Virus record (IMG/VR): IMGVR_UViG_3300010939_000031
DNA from: a virus
DNA length: 39,688 bases
Strand: one strand, 5' to 3'
Position 1 is the stretch's first letter; every line of letters begins with the position of its first letter. Of the stretch, positions 106 to 29,744 are shown one piece after another. Below the pieces are notes generated by a model. It did no database searches. It was not told the origin of the DNA and saw only the letters and a program-made list of their open reading frames with translations. The translations under genes and the position numbers were made by a program.

Positions 106-141
106 CACGGTGAGTTTTATAACGGGGGTGCACATTGTTAA
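1..141 (+). CDS. HNH/AP2-domain homing-endonuclease-like protein, C-terminal end (continuation of 39203..39688 across the circular junction)
   Basis: Frame 1 reads KWVVRCKANGKFLYFGSFNTIEAASAVYQEFAKKHHGEFYNGGAHC*, an AP2-type motif (KW.A.I...GK...LG.F.T.EEAA.AY). Stop TAA at 139-141. Confidence 0.75.
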   Translation, partial: KWVVRCKANGKFLYFGSFNTIEAASAVYQEFAKKHHGEFYNGGAHC

Positions 142-548
142 TCGACGATATTGCTGGATCAGCTCTTTACTACCCGATGCGCAACTGGGCGCGATGGGCC
201 GCAACAGCCAATAATCCCGGTATAGGCTATCCACGATCATCCCCCACCTGTAGGGAGTACCGGGAACCGGCAGGGGATACGTGGGATACGCCGATATCGG
301 GGATTGATGAAGATGAGGCCGAGAGGGTTGACGCTATTATTATGCGATTGCCAGCGGATTTAATTGTTGTGGTGCGCACCCATTATATTGATAATGGCAC
401 GACACCGCAAAAGATACGTAAATTAGACATGATGAAAAGTACATATTATGAGCGATTATGGTCAGCGAGGCGCATGATTTATGTGGCATTTGTAATAAAT
501 TCATCAAAGCCGCAAATAGATGTTGACATTCCGGAATTATTAGTTTAA
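135..548 (+). CDS. Late-gene antiterminator Q (phage 82 Q / QuuD-like)
   Basis: MRNWARWAATANN.., DEDEAERVDAIIMRL.., YYERLWSARRMI follow the pattern I recall for Q82 (LERWGAWAANN.., DDDAMIICGCMARL.., YIGKRLQKAEGII). It lies immediately upstream of a promoter plus terminator and the late genes. TTG start at 135; alternative ATG at 177. Confidence 0.6.
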   Translation: MLIDDIAGSALYYPMRNWARWAATANNPGIGYPRSSPTCREYREPAGDTWDTPISGIDEDEAERVDAIIMRLPADLIVVVRTHYIDNGTTPQKIRKLDMMKSTYYERLWSARRMIYVAFVINSSKPQIDVDIPELLV

Positions 549-561
549 ATTAGCGTATACT
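523..561 (+). promoter_or_regulatory. Candidate PR'-like late promoter with a -10-like repeat at the transcript start
   Basis: TTGACA 523-528, 17-nt spacer, TAAATT 546-551. A second -10-like hexamer TATACT at 556-561 overlaps the expected start site, as in sigma70-dependent pause sites used by Q proteins. Confidence 0.4.
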
Positions 562-583
562 TGTCCAGTATTGACGATCAACC

Positions 584-620
584 AAACCCGTAAGGCTCAC
601 CGCCAAGCGGGTTTTTTATT
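584..620 (+). terminator. Intrinsic terminator downstream of the late promoter (tR'-like)
   Basis: aaacccg(584-590)...cgggttt(608-614) stem with an inner ggc/gcc stem, followed by a T-run at 612-617. Confidence 0.7.
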
Positions 621-734
621 GCGGCCATCAATATTCTAAGGGCAGGACATGCCCGGCTCGCCTGCCAAGTGAACGGTTCTGTAATGCCGTCAGCAACAGG
701 AACTCACCGAAGCGACTCAAGCCTAGCTGCTTGA
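621..734 (+). pseudogene. 3'-terminal remnant of a tnpB (IS200/IS605 OrfB) gene, last 37 codons only
   Basis: The frame starting at 621 reads AAINILRAGHARLACQVNGSVMPSATGTHRSDSSLAA*. NAA.NIL..G is the RuvC-III tail motif of TnpB. There is no upstream coding continuation, and a right-end hairpin follows directly. Confidence 0.6.
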
Positions 735-743
735 GCGCCGTAG

Positions 744-777
744 GAATCGCCTTCCTTTAGGGAGGTGAGGATGTCAA
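744..777 (+). mobile_element. Orphan IS200/IS605-type right end (subterminal hairpin plus TCAA)
   Basis: GAAT-cgccttcc-TTTA-gggaggtg-aggatgTCAA. The 8-bp stem has two G.T pairs and a TTTA loop. TCAA ends exactly 10 nt after the hairpin foot, which is the IS608 right-end layout as I remember it. Confidence 0.55.
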
Positions 778-781
778 TGCC

Positions 782-1159
782 GTGGCTATTGCCAACATTG
801 CCGACAATGCCGCAACAGCGCCGTTGACTGATTTATATGTTTCGCTGCATACCGCTGATCCAGGCGAGGCAGGAACGCAGGCCACCAGTGAGACTGCGTA
901 CACAGGCTATGCGCGTGTAGCAGTAGCCCGATCAACTGCCGGATGGACAGTAACAAATAACAGCGTTAGCCCCGCCGCTAACGTGACATTTGGCGAATGC
1001 ACCGCAGCGCCAGGAACAGCGATCACACATTTCGCTGTAGGCGTCGCCTCAACGGGCACAACTAAAGTGCTGTACAAGGGCACTTTTACCCCTAACGTCA
1101 CTATGGCAGTGGGCGTTATTCCGATATTGAAGTCCACGTCCACGATCACCGAAGACTAG
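782..1159 (+). CDS. Hypothetical late protein (Thr/Ala/Gly-rich, beta-rich)
   Basis: GTG start 10 nt after GGAGGTGAGGA. 125-aa ORF; the antisense ORF looks like a shadow. No family recognised. Confidence 0.55.
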   Translation: MAIANIADNAATAPLTDLYVSLHTADPGEAGTQATSETAYTGYARVAVARSTAGWTVTNNSVSPAANVTFGECTAAPGTAITHFAVGVASTGTTKVLYKGTFTPNVTMAVGVIPILKSTSTITED

Positions 1160-1852: not shown

Positions 1853-2350
1853 ATGGCAGATAAAAATCATATACGTGGCACAGGTCGCCGCGGCCCTGCC
1901 CGCACGCCTAGCCATTTGAAAATTGTATCAGGCACAGACCGCGCAGACCGCTCCACTACTGGCATTTTTAAATTGACCGACAATACTGATCCTGTTTGTC
2001 CGGCGCACCTTAACGCCGGTGAGATTGCGGACTGGAATGAAGCTATAGAACTACTGCGCCCGATGGGGATTTTGTCGTCTACTGATGCATCTGTACTGAC
2101 GGCCTACTGTATTTCAAAAAACCTTGTAAGGGAAGCGTCAGAAGAGATTTCGGCTAGTGGTTTGTTTTCCGCGTCGTCAGCTGGGGTAGCGACTGCGCAC
2201 CCCGCCGTAGCCGTCAGGAGGCAGGCAATGACGGATATGGTTAGCTATGCCATACAAATGGGGATGACACCAGCGGCACGGCTCAGGCTCAACGCTGAAT
2301 CTTCAAAGAAAAAAGCCAATCCCTTTGACGCACTGAAAAACAGTGGGTGA
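1853..2350 (+). CDS. terS: Terminase small subunit (P27 family-like)
   Basis: P.HL...E...W......L...G.L...D...L..YC pattern, C-terminal FG(M)TPAAR.RL, and position before terL. Confidence 0.75.
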   Translation: MADKNHIRGTGRRGPARTPSHLKIVSGTDRADRSTTGIFKLTDNTDPVCPAHLNAGEIADWNEAIELLRPMGILSSTDASVLTAYCISKNLVREASEEISASGLFSASSAGVATAHPAVAVRRQAMTDMVSYAIQMGMTPAARLRLNAESSKKKANPFDALKNSG

Positions 2351-5105
2351 TTACGCCGCCCGTGCGATCGAATACGCTGAACACGCGGTTGACAAGAAAA
2401 ACAAGGGCAGTTACGGCAAGTGGACAATATTAGCCGCTAAACGCTTCCTTGGCGACTTAAAGAGGGCGAAAGCAAAAAACCCGCCGTTTTACTTTTCAGT
2501 GGCACAGGCGAACCGTGCGTGCGCTTTCATAGAGCAGTTACCCCATGTTGAAGGTGTGTGGGATACACCTACAATCGTTCTGCACGACTCAGATATATTT
2601 TTCATCTGCCAGTTGTTCGGCTTTCGGAAAGAGGACGGAACGCGGCGGTTCACTACGGCGCTTAAGGCCATCGCTAGGAAAAACGCAAAAGCGCTCGCTC
2701 TTGATACGCCGGTTGCAACGCCGGGCGGCTGGTCGACGATGGGTGATCTGGCGCTGGGCGACACGGTGTTCGGCGCTGACGGCCAGCCGTGCCGGGTGAC
2801 TGCAACAAGCCCAGTCTATATCGACCACGAATGCTACCGGCTCACATTCAGCAACGGCGAGGAAGTAATCGCTGATGCTGGACATCTTTGGATTACGACG
2901 GCGCGAGTGGATAAGCCGAACGGAAAGCCAGCGGGGAACAAGCAGACTCGGACGCGAGTACGCACCACGCAGGAGATCGTGGACACTCTACAGCACGGCT
3001 CACGTCGTGACACGAATCACTCCATCGCCATGCCTGCGCCGCTGGACTGTGCCGAGGCCGTCCTTCCAGTCGCTCCGTACACGTTAGGCGCTTGGCTGGG
3101 TGACGGCCACTCCGCAGGAGCCAGGCTGACATGCGACCGAAATGATATAGAAATTTTTGACGGAATCCGCATAGATGGATGGCCGGTGCGGGAGATGAGC
3201 CGGTCATCCGGCAAGGCTTCGCTATTCTCCCTGTCAAACGGAGACCGCAGCAGGGCGGTGCGTGACCTCTCGCTTATGTCGGCGCTTCGCAGGATGGGAG
3301 TACTCAACGACAAGCACATTCCAGCAGAATACCTTCGGGCATCGCTGAATCAGCGGCTTGCACTTTTACAGGGGTTGATGGATACAGACGGCACCGTTTC
3401 CAAAAACGGGCGGGTCATTTCCTTTACCGGCGTCAACGAACGGCTTGTGTGTGGTGTAGCTGAGCTTTTGGCAAGCATGGGCGTCAAATATTCGTGGCGT
3501 CGTGATCCGCTGGTATGCAACGGTAGACCGGTGCCCGGTGTTGGGCATAAGTTGCAATTTATGGCTTTTCGCGACGAGCTACCTGTTTTCAGGCTTCGCA
3601 GAAAGCTGGACAGAATGCTGCTCCGATCTGATTGCAATATTGCTTCACGGTCGCGCACGGTGCAGGTCGTGGCAGCCGAGCGGGTTCAGTCCGTACCAGT
3701 GCGATGCATTACGGTGGATTCGCCTAATCACCTATTCTTGTGCGGCAAAACGATGTTGCCGACGCACAACAGCACCATCGCCGCAGGAATTGCACTTTAC
3801 TGCCAAACCATGGAGCACGAAGTGGGGCCGCAGATCATCGCCGCCGCCACGACCGGCGATCAGGCGCGAATCGTTTTTAAAATCGCCAAACGCATGGTGG
3901 AAAAAACCCCCGATCTTCGGGAGGCGTTCGGCCTTGAGGCATTCGCTAATGCAATAGCCAGCTTTAACAACGGCGGCACATTCAAGGCCATTTCAGCCAA
4001 AGCCAGCACTCAAGACGGCTTAAACCCCTCCTGTCTCATCCTTGATGAGATTCACGCGCACAAAAATAGCGAACTACTCGACGTATTGAGGTCGGCGGCT
4101 GGCGCCAGACGTAACCCATTATTTCTCTATGCCACTACCGAGGGTTACGAATCACCCGGCCCGTGGCATGAGTTGCGTGACATGGCTAAGAAAGTGCTGT
4201 CCGGCAAGTTGGTGGCCGATCACTTCCTTGCCGTCTACTACGCAATAGACGATGACGACGACGACTTCGACGAATCTTGCTGGATAAAAGCAAATCCGTT
4301 GATGGACGTTAATCCCATCTTGCTTACCGAGTTGCGCAAAGAAGCCATTGAAGCCAAGGCCATGCCGGGCAAGATGGCTGAGTTCCGAATCAAACGCCTT
4401 AACCGTCAGAGTGCAACCGCGCAAGGCTGGATTAACTTTGACAAGTGGAAGAAGTGCGCCAAGAAAGTTGACCTGGAATATCTCAAGCAATTTCCTTGCT
4501 ACGGCGGTCTTGATCTTGCGAGCACTTCTGATCTTTGTTCGTTCCGCTTGGTTTGGTATGTCGATGGCGTCTATTACACATGGGGCAGGCGCTGGGTTCC
4601 TGAGACGGCTGTAGCGACGCGAACGACGCGAGGTAGCGTTCCTTACCAGTCATGGGTTGAGTCGGGCTACATAGAGCAAACCAAGGGCGAGATTACAGAT
4701 TACGGTGTAGTGGCGGCGGCGATTATTGAGGCGTGTGAGCGTTTCAATGTTCAGGGCATCGGTTACGACCAATGGAACGCCGCGCAACTTGTAGCAAAGC
4801 TAGAAGCTGAAAATATTCCAATGCAGATTTTCATCCAAGGGCCAAAAAGCTACCACCCTGCTATGCAGGAATTTGAACGTGCTTATGTGTCGGGTAACTT
4901 TCATTACGGCCACGACCCGGTATTGACGTGGAACGCATCAAACCTTGTAACAAGGACAGATCAAAACATGAATACCGCACCGGACAAGAAAAAATCGTCA
5001 GACAAAATTGATGACATGGTAGCACTGCTTATGGCGTTCGGCGTGGTAAATCAAACGCGAGACACAAACATAGATGATTTTATTAATAACCCGGTTATCT
5101 GCTGA
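2343..5105 (+). CDS. terL: Terminase large subunit, interrupted by an in-frame intein
   Basis: The Walker A motif is split: ..AIARKNAK | intein | STIAAGIALY.., giving RKNAKST after splicing. The C-terminal half has a DEIH Walker B motif and a nuclease domain. Mature length is 560 aa. Confidence 0.9.
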   Translation: MGDYAARAIEYAEHAVDKKNKGSYGKWTILAAKRFLGDLKRAKAKNPPFYFSVAQANRACAFIEQLPHVEGVWDTPTIVLHDSDIFFICQLFGFRKEDGTRRFTTALKAIARKNAKALALDTPVATPGGWSTMGDLALGDTVFGADGQPCRVTATSPVYIDHECYRLTFSNGEEVIADAGHLWITTARVDKPNGKPAGNKQTRTRVRTTQEIVDTLQHGSRRDTNHSIAMPAPLDCAEAVLPVAPYTLGAWLGDGHSAGARLTCDRNDIEIFDGIRIDGWPVREMSRSSGKASLFSLSNGDRSRAVRDLSLMSALRRMGVLNDKHIPAEYLRASLNQRLALLQGLMDTDGTVSKNGRVISFTGVNERLVCGVAELLASMGVKYSWRRDPLVCNGRPVPGVGHKLQFMAFRDELPVFRLRRKLDRMLLRSDCNIASRSRTVQVVAAERVQSVPVRCITVDSPNHLFLCGKTMLPTHNSTIAAGIALYCQTMEHEVGPQIIAAATTGDQARIVFKIAKRMVEKTPDLREAFGLEAFANAIASFNNGGTFKAISAKASTQDGLNPSCLILDEIHAHKNSELLDVLRSAAGARRNPLFLYATTEGYESPGPWHELRDMAKKVLSGKLVADHFLAVYYAIDDDDDDFDESCWIKANPLMDVNPILLTELRKEAIEAKAMPGKMAEFRIKRLNRQSATAQGWINFDKWKKCAKKVDLEYLKQFPCYGGLDLASTSDLCSFRLVWYVDGVYYTWGRRWVPETAVATRTTRGSVPYQSWVESGYIEQTKGEITDYGVVAAAIIEACERFNVQGIGYDQWNAAQLVAKLEAENIPMQIFIQGPKSYHPAMQEFERAYVSGNFHYGHDPVLTWNASNLVTRTDQNMNTAPDKKKSSDKIDDMVALLMAFGVVNQTRDTNIDDFINNPVIC
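2691..3770 (+). mobile_element. Intein (360 aa) with a LAGLIDADG homing-endonuclease domain, class-3-like
   Basis: Starts ALALDTPV (block A with Ala1) and ends ..LPTHN followed by +1 Ser. Block B reads DAGHLW (Trp at B:12), block F RCITVDSPNHLF (Cys), block G T-H-N, giving the WCT triplet. Two LAGLIDADG motifs: LGAWLGDGHS and LLQGLMDTDGT. Confidence 0.8.
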
Positions 5106-27059: not shown

Positions 27060-27158
27060 TTCTCACCCCCTTCTACGTCTAACACACCGTTCAACCTTCG
27101 TTCGCTACGCTCACCGGACTGGCTACGCCAGCCGGGTTAACTTGGGTGTTGGGCCGCA

Positions 27159-27440
27159 TCACAGCGATGCTTCCTGCTTCATCCGCCCTTCCAGTGAAGG
27201 CGCGTCCACAGGCTCACCGGGCAACCCCTGCCCTGAATACCTTAAACTCTCGACTTCGTGCGCCAACTTCAGCGCCTGAGAATTGTCGCCCGATCCCTCG
27301 CTATAAGAGGTTGTCATAATCTTGTTCATCGCCTCGCGCATTCCCTTCAGCGTCGACGGCATTGTGTAGTATTTCAACGCCGATCCTGAAGCGCGCAACA
27401 CTTCATCAAGTGCGGCGTCTACTTTTTCTTGCGGTATCAT
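27159..27440 (-). CDS. Hypothetical early protein (93 aa)
   Basis: I prefer ATG 27440 (MIPQEKVDAALDEVL...). The track start at 27473 would put the first 11 codons inside the IS left-end hairpin. Confidence 0.5.
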   Translation of the reverse strand: MIPQEKVDAALDEVLRASGSALKYYTMPSTLKGMREAMNKIMTTSYSEGSGDNSQALKLAHEVESLRYSGQGLPGEPVDAPSLEGRMKQEASL

Positions 27441-27456
27441 CAAAGCCCCCGTGAAA

Positions 27457-27477
27457 CCCCTGCCTTTAGGCATGGGG
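27457..27477 (+). repeat. Left-end subterminal hairpin (IS608-like, bulged T)
   Basis: cccctgcc-TTTA-ggca-T-gggg. It is nested in an outer gccccc (27445-27450) / gggggc (27484-27489) stem followed by gTTTTcT. Confidence 0.7.
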
Positions 27478-27504
27478 AGGTAAGGGGGCGGTTTTCTATT
27501 GTGC

Positions 27505-27532
27505 TTGACATTGCGCTAAACTCCTCTATACT
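27505..27532 (+). promoter_or_regulatory. Near-consensus sigma70 promoter for tnpB inside the left end
   Basis: TTGACA 27505-27510, 16-nt spacer, TATACT 27527-27532. ATG lies 7 nt further on (27540) with no SD. Confidence 0.55.
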
Positions 27533-27539
27533 TGACAAC

Positions 27540-28649
27540 ATGAAACTGGTAGCCAACCTCAAACTGAAGCCAACCAAAGAGCAAGAGCAGATGCTGAAGG
27601 CTACGCTTGAGCGCTGCAACGAAGCCTGTAATTGGCTTTCTGGTCAGGCTTGGGAAGCTAAGATTTTCAGGCAATACGATCTGCACAAACTTTGTTACCA
27701 CGAACTTCGCGCCAAGTTTGAGATAACGGCTCAGGTAGCTGTACGTTGCATTGCCAAGGTCGCGGATTCGTACAAGGTTGACCAAAAGACACAGCGCACT
27801 TTCCGCAAACATTCCGCACAGCCATACGATGACCGCATCCTTCGCTTTTGTGCGGATGATGTTGTGTCGATCTGGCTTGTGTCCGGGCGCGAGAAAATCG
27901 CCTACGCTTGCGGCGATCACCAGCGCGAACTTCTCAAATACAGAAAGGGCGAAGTTGACCTGATGTTCGTGCGCGGCAAGTGGTATCTCGCGGCTGTTTG
28001 TGACTTCGACGACCCCAAGCTGCTTACCCCGAATGGTGTGCTTGGTGTGGATTTCGGAATCGTTAGCATTGCCACCGACAGCATTGGCAACCAATACTCC
28101 GGCGCGAAGGTTGAAGCGAACCGGCAACGATACGCCAAACGCCGAGCAACATTGCAGCGTGTAGGCACCAGAGCAGCAAAGAGCCGCCTTCGCAAGATGA
28201 GCGGCAAGCAACAAAGGTTTCAAAAGCACGAGAACCACTGTATTTCCAAAGCAATCGTTTCCACTGCTGAACGCTCCTGCCTGGGTATTGCTCTCGAAGA
28301 TTTGACGCATATCCGTTCGCAGGTTAAGGCCAGAAAAAAGCAGCGCAACCGATTGCACAACTGGGGCTTCGGCCAGCTTCGAGACTTTGTAGAGTACAAA
28401 GCCAAGCGAGCCGGAGTTCCCGTTACGATTGTCGATCCACGTAACACCAGCCGAACTTGCGCTGAATGCGGGCATATCGACAAGCGCAACAGGAAAACCC
28501 AGCCCGAGTTTCTGTGTGTCGCCTGCGGGCATAGTTCTAACGCCGACGACAACGCAGCCCGGAACATTTCCGGGAAGGGTAGCTTTGTAAATCTGCCTAT
28601 GTTCGCGCATACGTTTGCCCCGTGTGCAGTGGAAAGCCCCCGGCTTTAG
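27540..28649 (+). CDS. tnpB: TnpB (IS605 OrfB-type RNA-guided nuclease), 369 aa
   Basis: N-terminus MKLVANLKLKPTKEQEQML. RuvC-I GVDFG, RuvC-II ALEDL, Zn finger CAECGH...CVACGH, RuvC-III NADDNAARNI. The TTG-27429 extension in the track crosses the hairpin and is rejected. Confidence 0.9.
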   Translation: MKLVANLKLKPTKEQEQMLKATLERCNEACNWLSGQAWEAKIFRQYDLHKLCYHELRAKFEITAQVAVRCIAKVADSYKVDQKTQRTFRKHSAQPYDDRILRFCADDVVSIWLVSGREKIAYACGDHQRELLKYRKGEVDLMFVRGKWYLAAVCDFDDPKLLTPNGVLGVDFGIVSIATDSIGNQYSGAKVEANRQRYAKRRATLQRVGTRAAKSRLRKMSGKQQRFQKHENHCISKAIVSTAERSCLGIALEDLTHIRSQVKARKKQRNRLHNWGFGQLRDFVEYKAKRAGVPVTIVDPRNTSRTCAECGHIDKRNRKTQPEFLCVACGHSSNADDNAARNISGKGSFVNLPMFAHTFAPCAVESPRL

Positions 28650-28665
28650 CCGTGGGGTTATTTAC
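28500..28665 (+). ncRNA. Predicted omega RNA (reRNA) scaffold overlapping the tnpB 3' end and right end; 5' limit not determinable
   Basis: By analogy to characterised TnpB systems. The 3' hairpin is at 28637-28657, and the guide would start just after about 28665. Confidence 0.4.
28637..28657 (+). repeat. Right-end subterminal hairpin (IS608-like, bulged T)
   Basis: cccccggc-TTTA-gccg-T-gggg preceded by AAAG and followed by ttatTTACatc. Confidence 0.7.
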
Positions 28666-28877
28666 ATCTTTTTTATCCTCAGCACAATCCCATCCCAGCA
28701 CATGCACCCCATCATTATGGATGGCTCAATATCAACAACCTCATACTCGGCGGCGTCATCTTCAACTTCCACCCTTACAGAAGATGGCATTTCATGTGAT
28801 GAGATATTCCCCGCGCCGTCGCACCCCACCTCCTCGGCAATTGTTGCTACACGGCCGGCGAATTGTTTTACTAGCAT
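28662..28877 (-). CDS. Hypothetical acidic protein (71 aa); its stop codon lies in the IS right end
   Basis: ORF ends ...LRIKKM-TAA, with the TAA at 28662-28664 inside the TTAC of the IS end. Confidence 0.45.
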   Translation of the reverse strand: MLVKQFAGRVATIAEEVGCDGAGNISSHEMPSSVRVEVEDDAAEYEVVDIEPSIMMGCMCWDGIVLRIKKM

Positions 28878-29540: not shown

Positions 29541-29684
29541 TGTGTTTTCCTTCTGTCTACGGAATATAAAACTTGATTTCAGGTAATGGTATTGAGCAAA
29601 GATGCTCTACGAAAAAATTTCCCTTAGCGGTTAGCCTATAATGCGGCGGGGGAGCCTCATGCAGCGTCCGCCAGATCATGTCTT

Positions 29685-29727
29685 CGGCATTGACATCCTC
29701 CCCGCCCTAAAGGACGGGGAGGATGTC
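29685..29727 (-). mobile_element. Second orphan IS200/IS605-type right-end-like hairpin
   Basis: Minus strand: gacatcct-ccccgtcc-TTTA-gggcgggg-aggatgTCAAtgccg. The stem is 15 bp. The 16-mer gaggatgtcaatgccg is identical to 767-782. Confidence 0.55.
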
Positions 29728-29744
29728 AAGACACCTGTCCTCTT

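Follow-up and report, generated by a model that had tools for sequence, protein, structure and literature searches.

The right end of IS608 carries a guide tetranucleotide 5′ of a hairpin foot and the word TCAA approximately 10 nt 3′ of it (PMC3201880). In ISDra2, the tnpB 3′ end and the right end together give rise to a multi-stem omega RNA (reRNA) with the guide just 3′ of the element end; its scaffold is 116 nt long and contains a pseudoknot in which positions −5 to −3 pair with −103 to −105 (PMC10097598). The archaeal HgcC RNA and sotRNAs also overlap tnpB 3′ ends (PMC4615843). Standalone omega RNAs (Altae-Tran et al. 2021, via PMC10691335) are described as 'evidently mobilized' and as present in genomes that also hold an effector. 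The locus examined here lies in the viral record IMGVR_UViG_3300010939_000031 (39,688 nt, one strand), and this whole stretch is referred to below as the window. Positions 618–777 are truly the 3′ end of a decayed IS200/IS605-family element, made up of a tnpB tail and a right end; they retain a complete omega RNA scaffold and probably represent the immobile scar of an insertion and a deletion at the head of the late genes.

The remnant shares its right-end hairpin, the tetranucleotide GAAT and a TCAA located 9–10 nt to the 3′ side with Helicobacter pylori IS608 and with the ISAba30-like element of Ralstonia phages Dimitile and Cimandef. Compared with the Dimitile element, it is 79% identical in DNA at the 3′ end and keeps only the last ~160 bp. 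Its origin, multi-stem build and guide position are those of the ISDra2 RNA, and its tail is able to pair near the 5′ end in the manner of the ISDra2 pseudoknot (PMC10097598); it differs in having no sequence similarity to that RNA, in its length (~147 versus 116 nt) and in having no adjacent TnpB. Like the standalone omega RNAs, it possesses a scaffold and a guide position without an adjacent effector or transposase, and unlike them it has no left end, no matching TnpB in the phage and no expected motif in the natural alleles that match the guide. The archaeal sotRNAs and HgcC have the same genomic origin (the 3′ end of an IS1341-type tnpB), though the remnant is not a member of either Rfam family. 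Insertion sequence ends are also known to supply expression signals to their neighbours, and in this case the signal would be a ribosome-binding site provided by an IS200/IS605 end within a read-through phage late transcript.

The tnpB tail and right end

618–777 (+), 3′-terminal remnant of an IS200/IS605-family element that comprises the tnpB tail and the right end and corresponds to a complete omega RNA scaffold (blastn, alignments, covariance model R1)
621–734 (+), last 37 tnpB codons and stop codon, just past the RuvC-III motif (translation; without start codon or upstream continuation)
744–777 (+), right end: guide tetranucleotide GAAT at 744–747, hairpin H4 at 747–755/760–768 and tail GGATGTCAA to the cleavage word TCAA at 774–777 (sequence, covariation)

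An orphan tnpB 3′ fragment joined to a right end had been proposed for this segment in the original prediction, with similarity to TnpB C-termini as a check, and the proposal was borne out by DNA and protein homology to full-length elements ending at 777. The frame at 621–734 translates to AAINILRAGHARLACQVNGSVMPSATGTHRSDSSLAA followed by a stop, and 26 of 36 residues (72%, E 2e-17) are identical to residues 367–402 of the 406-aa TnpB of Ralstonia phage Dimitile. The same peptide is 94% identical to the tail of protein P0057. Pfam gave no match to the peptide, which is too short at 37 aa for this and for a protein search; the 55-aa chimeric query used for the latter returned short fragments only. 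A blastn search with sensitive settings and window positions 560–800 as the query aligned 624–777 at 79.1% identity to the tnpB 3′ end and following DNA of phages Dimitile and Cimandef. The TnpB 3′ ends on 38 E. coli plasmids were 70.9% identical to the remnant, and 1110 plasmid records in PLSDB, from across the Proteobacteria, match it. In every alignment the homology stops at, or 1–3 nt from, the TCAA at 777.

Bases 744–777 (GAAT-cgccttcc-TTTA-gggaggtg-aggatgTCAA) contain the hairpin, 5′ tetranucleotide and cleavage word of an IS200/IS605 right end, and the tail is identical in 30 of 30 family copies. The IS608-type layout (PMC3201880) had thus been recognised correctly, with one correction: TCAA was placed 10 nt past the hairpin foot and ends 9 nt from it when the 9-bp stem 747–755/760–768 is counted. 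Nothing resembling a left end (hairpin, guide sequence and flanking target word) was identified upstream of 618, where only the phage terminator is present; the left end of the relatives is of the type TGAC, then C..GCGCGACAAG and a hairpin. Neither tnpA nor a full tnpB is found at the remnant, which retains 37 tnpB codons with an in-frame stop upstream. The remnant is unable to transpose, as the left end, tnpA and a functional tnpB are all missing. Judging from the sister copies L221 and L222, the tnpB-derived sequence probably starts at 618–621, and the earlier observation that nothing upstream continues it agrees with the intrinsic terminator at 584–617.

The sole full TnpB in the window is that of a resident element (27540–28649). 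It is only 29% identical to the remnant family, and model R1 (see below) gives its own 3′ end only 8 bits, so the 3′ RNA is a different one; the view that the remnant comes from another element than the resident TnpB therefore stands. No cognate TnpB for the remnant was found within the window, which is the sequence covered by this check. A matching TnpB is expected to have a C-terminus that reads ...AAINILRAGHARLACQVNG.VMPSATGTHRSDSS... (…ACQVNG…THRSDSS…).

Structure and completeness of the scaffold

631–636 (+), possible 5′ strand of a closing helix or pseudoknot that pairs with 769–774 (88% of cells paired, one-sided changes only; weak)
640–654 (+), helix H1, 640–644/650–654 (5 of 5 pairs change on both sides, 30 members)
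661–700 (+), long-range core helix 661–665/696–700 enclosing helix H2, 674–677/686–689 (core invariant; 4 of 4 H2 pairs covary)
707–744 (+), junction pairs 707–708/743–744 and helix H3, 712–717/734–738 (5 of 5 counted H3 pairs change on both sides)

A degenerate right-end pattern was used to gather members of the family from IMG/VR, with matches in 112 contigs. From 30 copies, the terminal ~165 nt were aligned (alignment A2), and RNAalifold and explicit pair counts were run on this alignment. In addition to the helices listed, the right-end hairpin H4 has nine pairs, four of them with compensatory changes, and 99.6% of its cells are paired. The structure as a whole (H1–H4, the long-range helix and the two-pair junction) is paired in 96% of cells, compared with 43–52% when the partners are slid, and 18 pairs change on both sides; none of 500 shuffles reached the observed values. 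In the minimum-free-energy fold of the window sequence at 621–800 the helix 631–636/769–774 is included and H3 is extended by 718–722/729–733.

A covariance model (R1, alignment A3) was built from 27 other family copies, with the window left out. It matches 624–777 over model positions 1–154 of 154 with 149.3 bits (E 2.7e-45), and since the model is free of the window this excludes a chance origin; full-tnpB copies outside the model score 143–168 bits. All of the elements supported by covariation fall within 631–774, inside the remnant, and the scaffold is therefore complete, as had been suggested; it is also undecayed and typical of the family. Two features of an omega RNA are present, namely the origin (tnpB 3′ end plus right end, with the guide just 3′) and the shared secondary structure. 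At four columns that are at least 93% conserved the window deviates. Mild decay of the scaffold was considered and rejected, because the three sister copies L220, L221 and L222 have the same deviating bases, which are thus a trait of the lineage rather than damage. The pair 665/696 is C-A in the window and U-G in others, a trait common to the sister copies L220 and L222.

No Rfam family was reached at gathering thresholds anywhere in the window. The near-matches were HgcC (full model, 638–790, E 0.25, 15.9 versus 50 bits) and sot0042, which aligned by the terminal hairpin only (9 bits against a gathering score of 88); both scores are far below those required for membership.

Sister copies and other orphans of the family

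The three sister copies of the window lineage are all truncated, with lengths of 149 nt (L220), ~250 nt (L222) and ~300 nt (L221). L220 is identical to window positions 629–778 at 148 of 150 positions (98.7%), the two differences lying in loops, and is located in an unrelated phage-like context with its left edge 8–11 nt from that of the window. L222 differs from window 621–709 by 1 nt, but its H3 and H4 are different, which makes it a mosaic. Within positions 330–920 of that contig, ~250 nt of tnpB tail and right end interrupt the 5′ end of a phage HNH gene, as seen by comparison with positions 300–500 of L224.

No full-length parent element was present in any collection searched: BLASTN, which had been proposed as the means of finding it, returned related full-length elements and not the actual parent. 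Exact searches for the right junction in viral contigs, for the right-end hairpin in 185k genomes and for the H3 signature in metagenome contigs gave no hits.

Orphans of this family that are truncated at the 5′ end, to many different lengths, are frequent in phages and Proteobacteria. About 15 loci in viral contigs are right-end stumps without tnpB that range from <80 nt to a full scaffold, and among public proteins there are 84 short fragments of the TnpB C-terminus, from many Proteobacteria, whose junctions are scattered across TnpB residues 323–370. The full-length family copies form groups by the position of the tnpB stop, at 17, 34–47, about 140 and about 231 nt before the element end. 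A first BLAST estimate had the left edges of the orphans clustering at the 5′ end of the scaffold; this was an artefact, as many of the copies have a full tnpB with its stop 140–230 nt before the end, and the true orphan left junctions are widely spread.

Two other arrangements were observed among the collected loci. At 4040–4260 in L220, an 11-nt direct repeat, TTTACGCATAC, is found on both sides of the orphan copy; it is not accounted for by the insertion, as IS200/IS605 elements do not produce target duplications. At 4060–4328 in L110, and at the same site in L117 and L131, there is a ~270-bp mini-element in which a full scaffold (106.6 bits) lies between a left-end hairpin and a right end; an ORF (open reading frame) with a GTG start begins 2 nt past its end.

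The downstream gene and its putative ribosome-binding site

782–1159 (+), 5′-truncated Gp80-like (fibre or head-decoration-like) ORF of 125 aa (Pfam PF23140 Gp80, E 1e-15)
761–771 (+), Shine-Dalgarno-like GGAGGTGAGGA in the 3′ hairpin arm and adjoining tail of the right end (sequence; serves GTG 782, also ATG 771)

The gene directly following the remnant, ORF 782, has 588 relatives in IMG/VR, obtained by a protein-pattern scan. All 18 of the 18 homologues whose upstream DNA was inspected begin 54 nt earlier, with MSKGNTFENDLLKLIFNA (18 codons), and in L003 an intact homologue of 143 aa shares 82% identity with the ORF 782 product. At the junction site the intact homologues read ...CTGATCTTCAA and then TGCCACGGCC..., that is TTCAA followed by TGCC, and in the window the right-end TCAA is directly joined to TGCCGTGGCT. 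Because the intact homologues carry this extension and the window has TCAA in its place, ORF 782 has lost 18 codons along with the native ribosome-binding site.

The frame of ORF 782, which does not extend upstream of 761, has no start codon ahead of GTG 782, and public gene calls begin the 125-aa product at this codon. The sequence GGAGGTGAGGA is the sole Shine-Dalgarno sequence ahead of GTG 782, in agreement with the earlier assignment of the hairpin GGAGG as the ribosome-binding site of this ORF, and the right end would thus supply the signal. The invariant ATG 771 of the right end opens an out-of-frame ORF of 18 codons at 771–827 (+), encoding MSMPWLLPTLPTMPQQRR and a stop, with GGAGG 5 nt upstream. 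It runs across the start of ORF 782, with which it could compete or be coupled.

ORFs 782, 1163 and 1451 abut, with 3 nt between the stop at 1159 and the start at 1163 and 0 nt between the stop at 1450 and the start at 1451, a spacing that suggests translational coupling. Initiation at 782 may consequently be important for every ORF in the chain, the terminase-associated HNH gene among them. The Gp80-like and BppU_N-like pair (782–1759) is missing from the portal-related prophages, in which the packaging module opens at HNH or TerS, and looks like an add-on.

Guide position and history of the junction

778–797 (+), guide-equivalent 20 nt TGCCGTGGCTATTGCCAACA, corresponding to codons 18–24 of the ancestral Gp80-like gene (immediately after the right end)

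The guide had been expected at the start of the first late ORF. Its position immediately 3′ of 777 holds, but this is not an intact gene start, being instead the interior of a 5′-truncated Gp80-like gene. The 20 nt are unique within the window even when up to 3 mismatches are allowed. The intact alleles have TTCAA ahead of the guide match, and TTCAA plus TGCCGTGGCTATTGCC was considered as the form of the target. No exact target of this form was found in the metagenome or viral collections, and the closest intact alleles seen differ from the guide within its first 10 positions.

In the closest full-length relatives, the element is preceded by nTGAC. Across the family, the target word co-varies with the left-end guide tetranucleotide, as TGAC-CAAG in the Dimitile group (closest to the window in this comparison, with 77% identity), TGAT-CAAA and TTAT-AAAA, in accordance with the pairing rule of IS608 (PMC3201880). 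These subgroups (loci L097–L206) have an identical right-end tail, and the right end pairs TCAA with GAAT. The insertion site of L222 reads TTTTTGAC (TTGAC) in its uninterrupted homologue L224. Although the left end of the parent is missing, these comparisons point to TGAC as the target motif of the lineage. Some intact alleles of the Gp80-like gene (L075, L028) have TGAC ~24 nt upstream, within Asn-Asp-Leu codons.

Canonical insertion at TTCAA was the first reading of the junction and is now doubtful given the TGAC evidence. Two routes to the present arrangement can be considered. It is possible that the lost left end was TCAA-specific, in which case the element's own GTCAA-plus-guide junction would be nearly a target, differing at one base. 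The more likely route is a secondary short deletion between the right-end TCAA and the TTCAA of the gene after a canonical insertion nearby; the present guide at 778–797 would then never have had a target with the correct motif.

The probable native late leader

135–548 (+), Q-like antiterminator ORF of 137 aa (upstream of the late promoter; phrog_79 match)
523–551 (+), candidate late (pR′-like) promoter, TTGACA, 17 nt, TAAATT (promoter scan, 10 of 12 matches)
584–617 (+), intrinsic terminator (tR′-like) with an 8-bp outer stem, 584–591/607–614, and a U run (RNA fold of 560–625)

The protein encoded at 135–548 has a weak match to the PHROG family phrog_79, 'anti-termination protein Q-like' (E 1.1e-4). 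It is 68% and 63% identical to relatives P0002 and P0003, respectively; a search of IMG/VR for relatives of the Q-like protein found none, and a megablast of 1–1500 against phages returned nothing. In L094, the 63%-identical Q-relative lies ~0.7 kb, or two small ORFs, upstream of a matching promoter and terminator module. The L094 promoter is nearly identical (TTGACTttccggacttattagTATAAT) and is followed by a short leader and a terminator, and on this basis the promoter and terminator of the window are regarded as native phage features. A tR′-like terminator ahead of the remnant was part of the original prediction, and the stem at 584–591/607–614 with its U run and the analogue in L094 agree with it. 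This terminator was missed by a simple terminator scan because its loop is long, and the Rfam Trp_leader model aligned at 584–617 by the terminator hairpin only.

The setting of a late-operon leader (Q, pR′, tR′) is reasonable, with antitermination itself deduced from the gene layout. The expectation that late transcripts would contain the remnant agrees with its location downstream of the late-promoter-like site and terminator: read-through transcripts would carry it, and the late promoter would give strong expression. In L093 (689–1573), the gene for the closest Q-like relative (68%) is directly followed by an opposite-strand IS1/IS240-type transposase, another insertion at the same phage position.

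Further IS200/IS605 sequences in the window

27137–27249 (−), second remnant of the same family (R1 32 bits, E about 1e-8; match restricted to the 5′ scaffold half, with H1, core helix and H2)
29611–29729 (+), third, degenerate remnant (R1 32 bits, 3′ half; the minus strand also gives 28.9 bits)
27429–28666 (+), resident tnpB-only element of another subfamily, apparently intact (TnpB from ATG 27540 to 28649)

The second remnant contains tnpB-tail-like codons (…LRYSGQGLPGEPVD…GRMKQEA) that form the C-terminus of the minus-strand ORF 27159–27473, and no DNA match to 27137–27249 was found in the plasmid collection. The third remnant is closed by a perfect 40-nt palindrome at 29690–29729, TTGACATCCTCCCCGCCCTAAAGGACGGGGAGGATGTCAA, which is the right-end hairpin extended with the tail GAGGATGTCAA paired; it opens with TTGAC, the target word of the family. 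This remnant is flanked by minus-strand ORFs that we take, from reading their translations, to encode an SSB-like protein and a YqaJ-like exonuclease. The resident element has a left-end-like hairpin at 27457–27476 and a right-end-like hairpin at ~28637–28659. Its left end overlaps the start of the minus-strand ORF 27159–27473, and it may also have interrupted a phage gene.

Origin and possible roles of the remnant

The explanation that we consider probable is that 618–777 is an immobile insertion and deletion scar, left by an IS200/IS605 element with IS608-type ends that carried tnpB, and that it now serves as a passive leader and ribosome-binding site. The element would have inserted into the 5′ end of the Gp80-like gene, or immediately ahead of it; this gene comes first after the late promoter and terminator. 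A subsequent deletion would have taken out the left end, tnpA if there was one, ~1.1 kb of tnpB and, from the gene, the native ribosome-binding site and the first 18 codons, with the last 37 tnpB codons and the right end left over. The remnant would be transcribed within the leader of the late mRNA, where its tail would feed GTG 782 at the head of the chain of ORFs 782, 1163 and 1451. The scaffold is intact because the omega RNA of the family is encoded by exactly the stretch that was retained, and its retention needs no functional explanation because similar remnants, of all lengths, are frequent.

Several observations weigh against a purely passive scar. The scaffold shows no decay. Three remnants in one phage imply hosts with active copies, so that a cognate TnpB may be provided in trans, and standalone omega RNAs are known to use compatible effectors in this way (PMC10691335). 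The near-equal left edge of L220 could hint at selection for a scaffold-sized unit, although the coincidence has a chance of ~0.14 and is not significant, in a search that saw junctions within ~174 nt only. The use of the Shine-Dalgarno sequence and of GTG 782 is itself deduced from the arrangement of the locus, and no relative was found with an intact late leader, which would reveal its state before insertion and the order of the insertion and deletion events.

An unlikely alternative is that the segment has been exapted as a cis-acting leader, with a stable fold that would protect the 5′ end of the read-through late mRNA or gate the translation of ORF 782. In the gating variant, a closing helix of 621–636 with 769–783 would cover both the Shine-Dalgarno sequence and the GTG. 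The predicted fold of 621–800 (−70.6 kcal/mol, z-score −3.6) does combine H1–H4 with a closing helix that sequesters 769–783, but its stability is inherited from the omega RNA scaffold and new selection is unneeded, and the phage-specific part of the closing helix, 621–625/779–783, is a prediction only. The site right after the terminator, at the head of closely abutting ORFs, would suit such control. Against this, several samples contain the identical phage, with 100% identity over 501–900 in at least 24 metagenome contigs; the scar is fixed and the population clonal, with no variation by which constraint could be tested.

It is improbable, in our judgement, that the remnant acts as a functional stand-alone omega RNA. 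A host TnpB would process the late transcript, and the complex, guided by 778–797, would cut phages or prophages with the uninterrupted allele, resulting in inter-phage competition or in homing of the scar-bearing allele. The complete, undecayed and family-typical scaffold is what such a role calls for, as is the strong late-promoter expression expected from the layout, and a near-identical scaffold-sized orphan exists elsewhere in L220. Omega RNAs act in trans when standalone (PMC10691335) and are as active in trans as in cis (bioRxiv 10.1101/2023.11.20.567912), and the three family insertions in this phage imply hosts with active elements; the window, however, has no cognate TnpB, the resident protein being 29% identical with a different 3′ RNA, and the collections searched have no full-length parent. 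The motif also argues against a guide, as intact alleles have TTCAA before the guide match where the nearest relatives and L222 have TGAC, and if TTCAA were the motif, the element's own GTCAA-plus-guide junction would be a single base away from a target. The viral and metagenome collections gave no exact target allele, the closest alleles having mismatches within the first 10 positions, and shorter, non-functional remnants are equally common. A working orphan guide is overall possible but unlikely, because the phage has no cognate TnpB, the motif does not match and equivalent debris is abundant. The specific proposal that a guide-only remnant at the head of the late operon borrows a host TnpB and cuts co-infecting or resident relatives with the uninterrupted gene is very improbable.

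A still-mobile non-autonomous mini-element (PATE-like, with left end, omega RNA and right end) inserted as a unit is hardly credible: such units do exist in phage contigs (the ~270-bp L110 element at 4060–4328) and L220 is a second copy of nearly equal length, but neither a left-end hairpin nor a left-end guide sequence precedes 640 and the RNA is not flanked by both ends, the DNA before 618 is the phage's own terminator, 618/621–631 run into tnpB coding sequence as in the longer L221 and L222, and the left edges of the window copy and L220 are not the same.

Relatives and probable host

Relatives identified by the portal protein are prophages in metagenome-assembled genomes of betaproteobacteria (Rhodoferax, Massilia, Propionivibrio, Azonexus, Rubrivivax and Nitrosomonas), with one further relative in a Thermomonas (Gammaproteobacteria) and one in an alphaproteobacterial metagenome-assembled genome. 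The host is probably a betaproteobacterium from activated sludge or freshwater. In the portal relatives, the region ahead of the packaging module has no Q-like, Gp80-like or BppU-like genes, and none of these relatives matches R1. The large terminase of the window (2343–5105 (+), 920 aa) contains a ~360-aa insert at approximately residues 118–476 that is not in any relative and has a weak LAGLIDADG_3 match; this insert is probably an intein.

Implications

For annotation, ORF 782 is a 5′-truncated Gp80-like gene with an apparently transposon-derived ribosome-binding site, and 618–777, 27137–27249 and 29611–29729 are IS200/IS605 remnants. If the remnant, improbable as that is, served as a guide against relatives, a dead transposon would have become an RNA-guided weapon, or a homing device for the scar-bearing allele, and the scaffold-sized L220, the phage-borne orphan L121 with its full scaffold and the L110 mini-element, which has kept both ends, would be further guide-only modules. 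Were it to load a host TnpB, this virus would keep only the RNA half of an RNA-guided nuclease, which would bear on how guide-only arrays or CRISPR-like systems may arise from transposon debris. As a scar, the locus shows how often tnpB-bearing elements hit phages, leaving behind 3′ stumps that are equal to the guide RNA gene.

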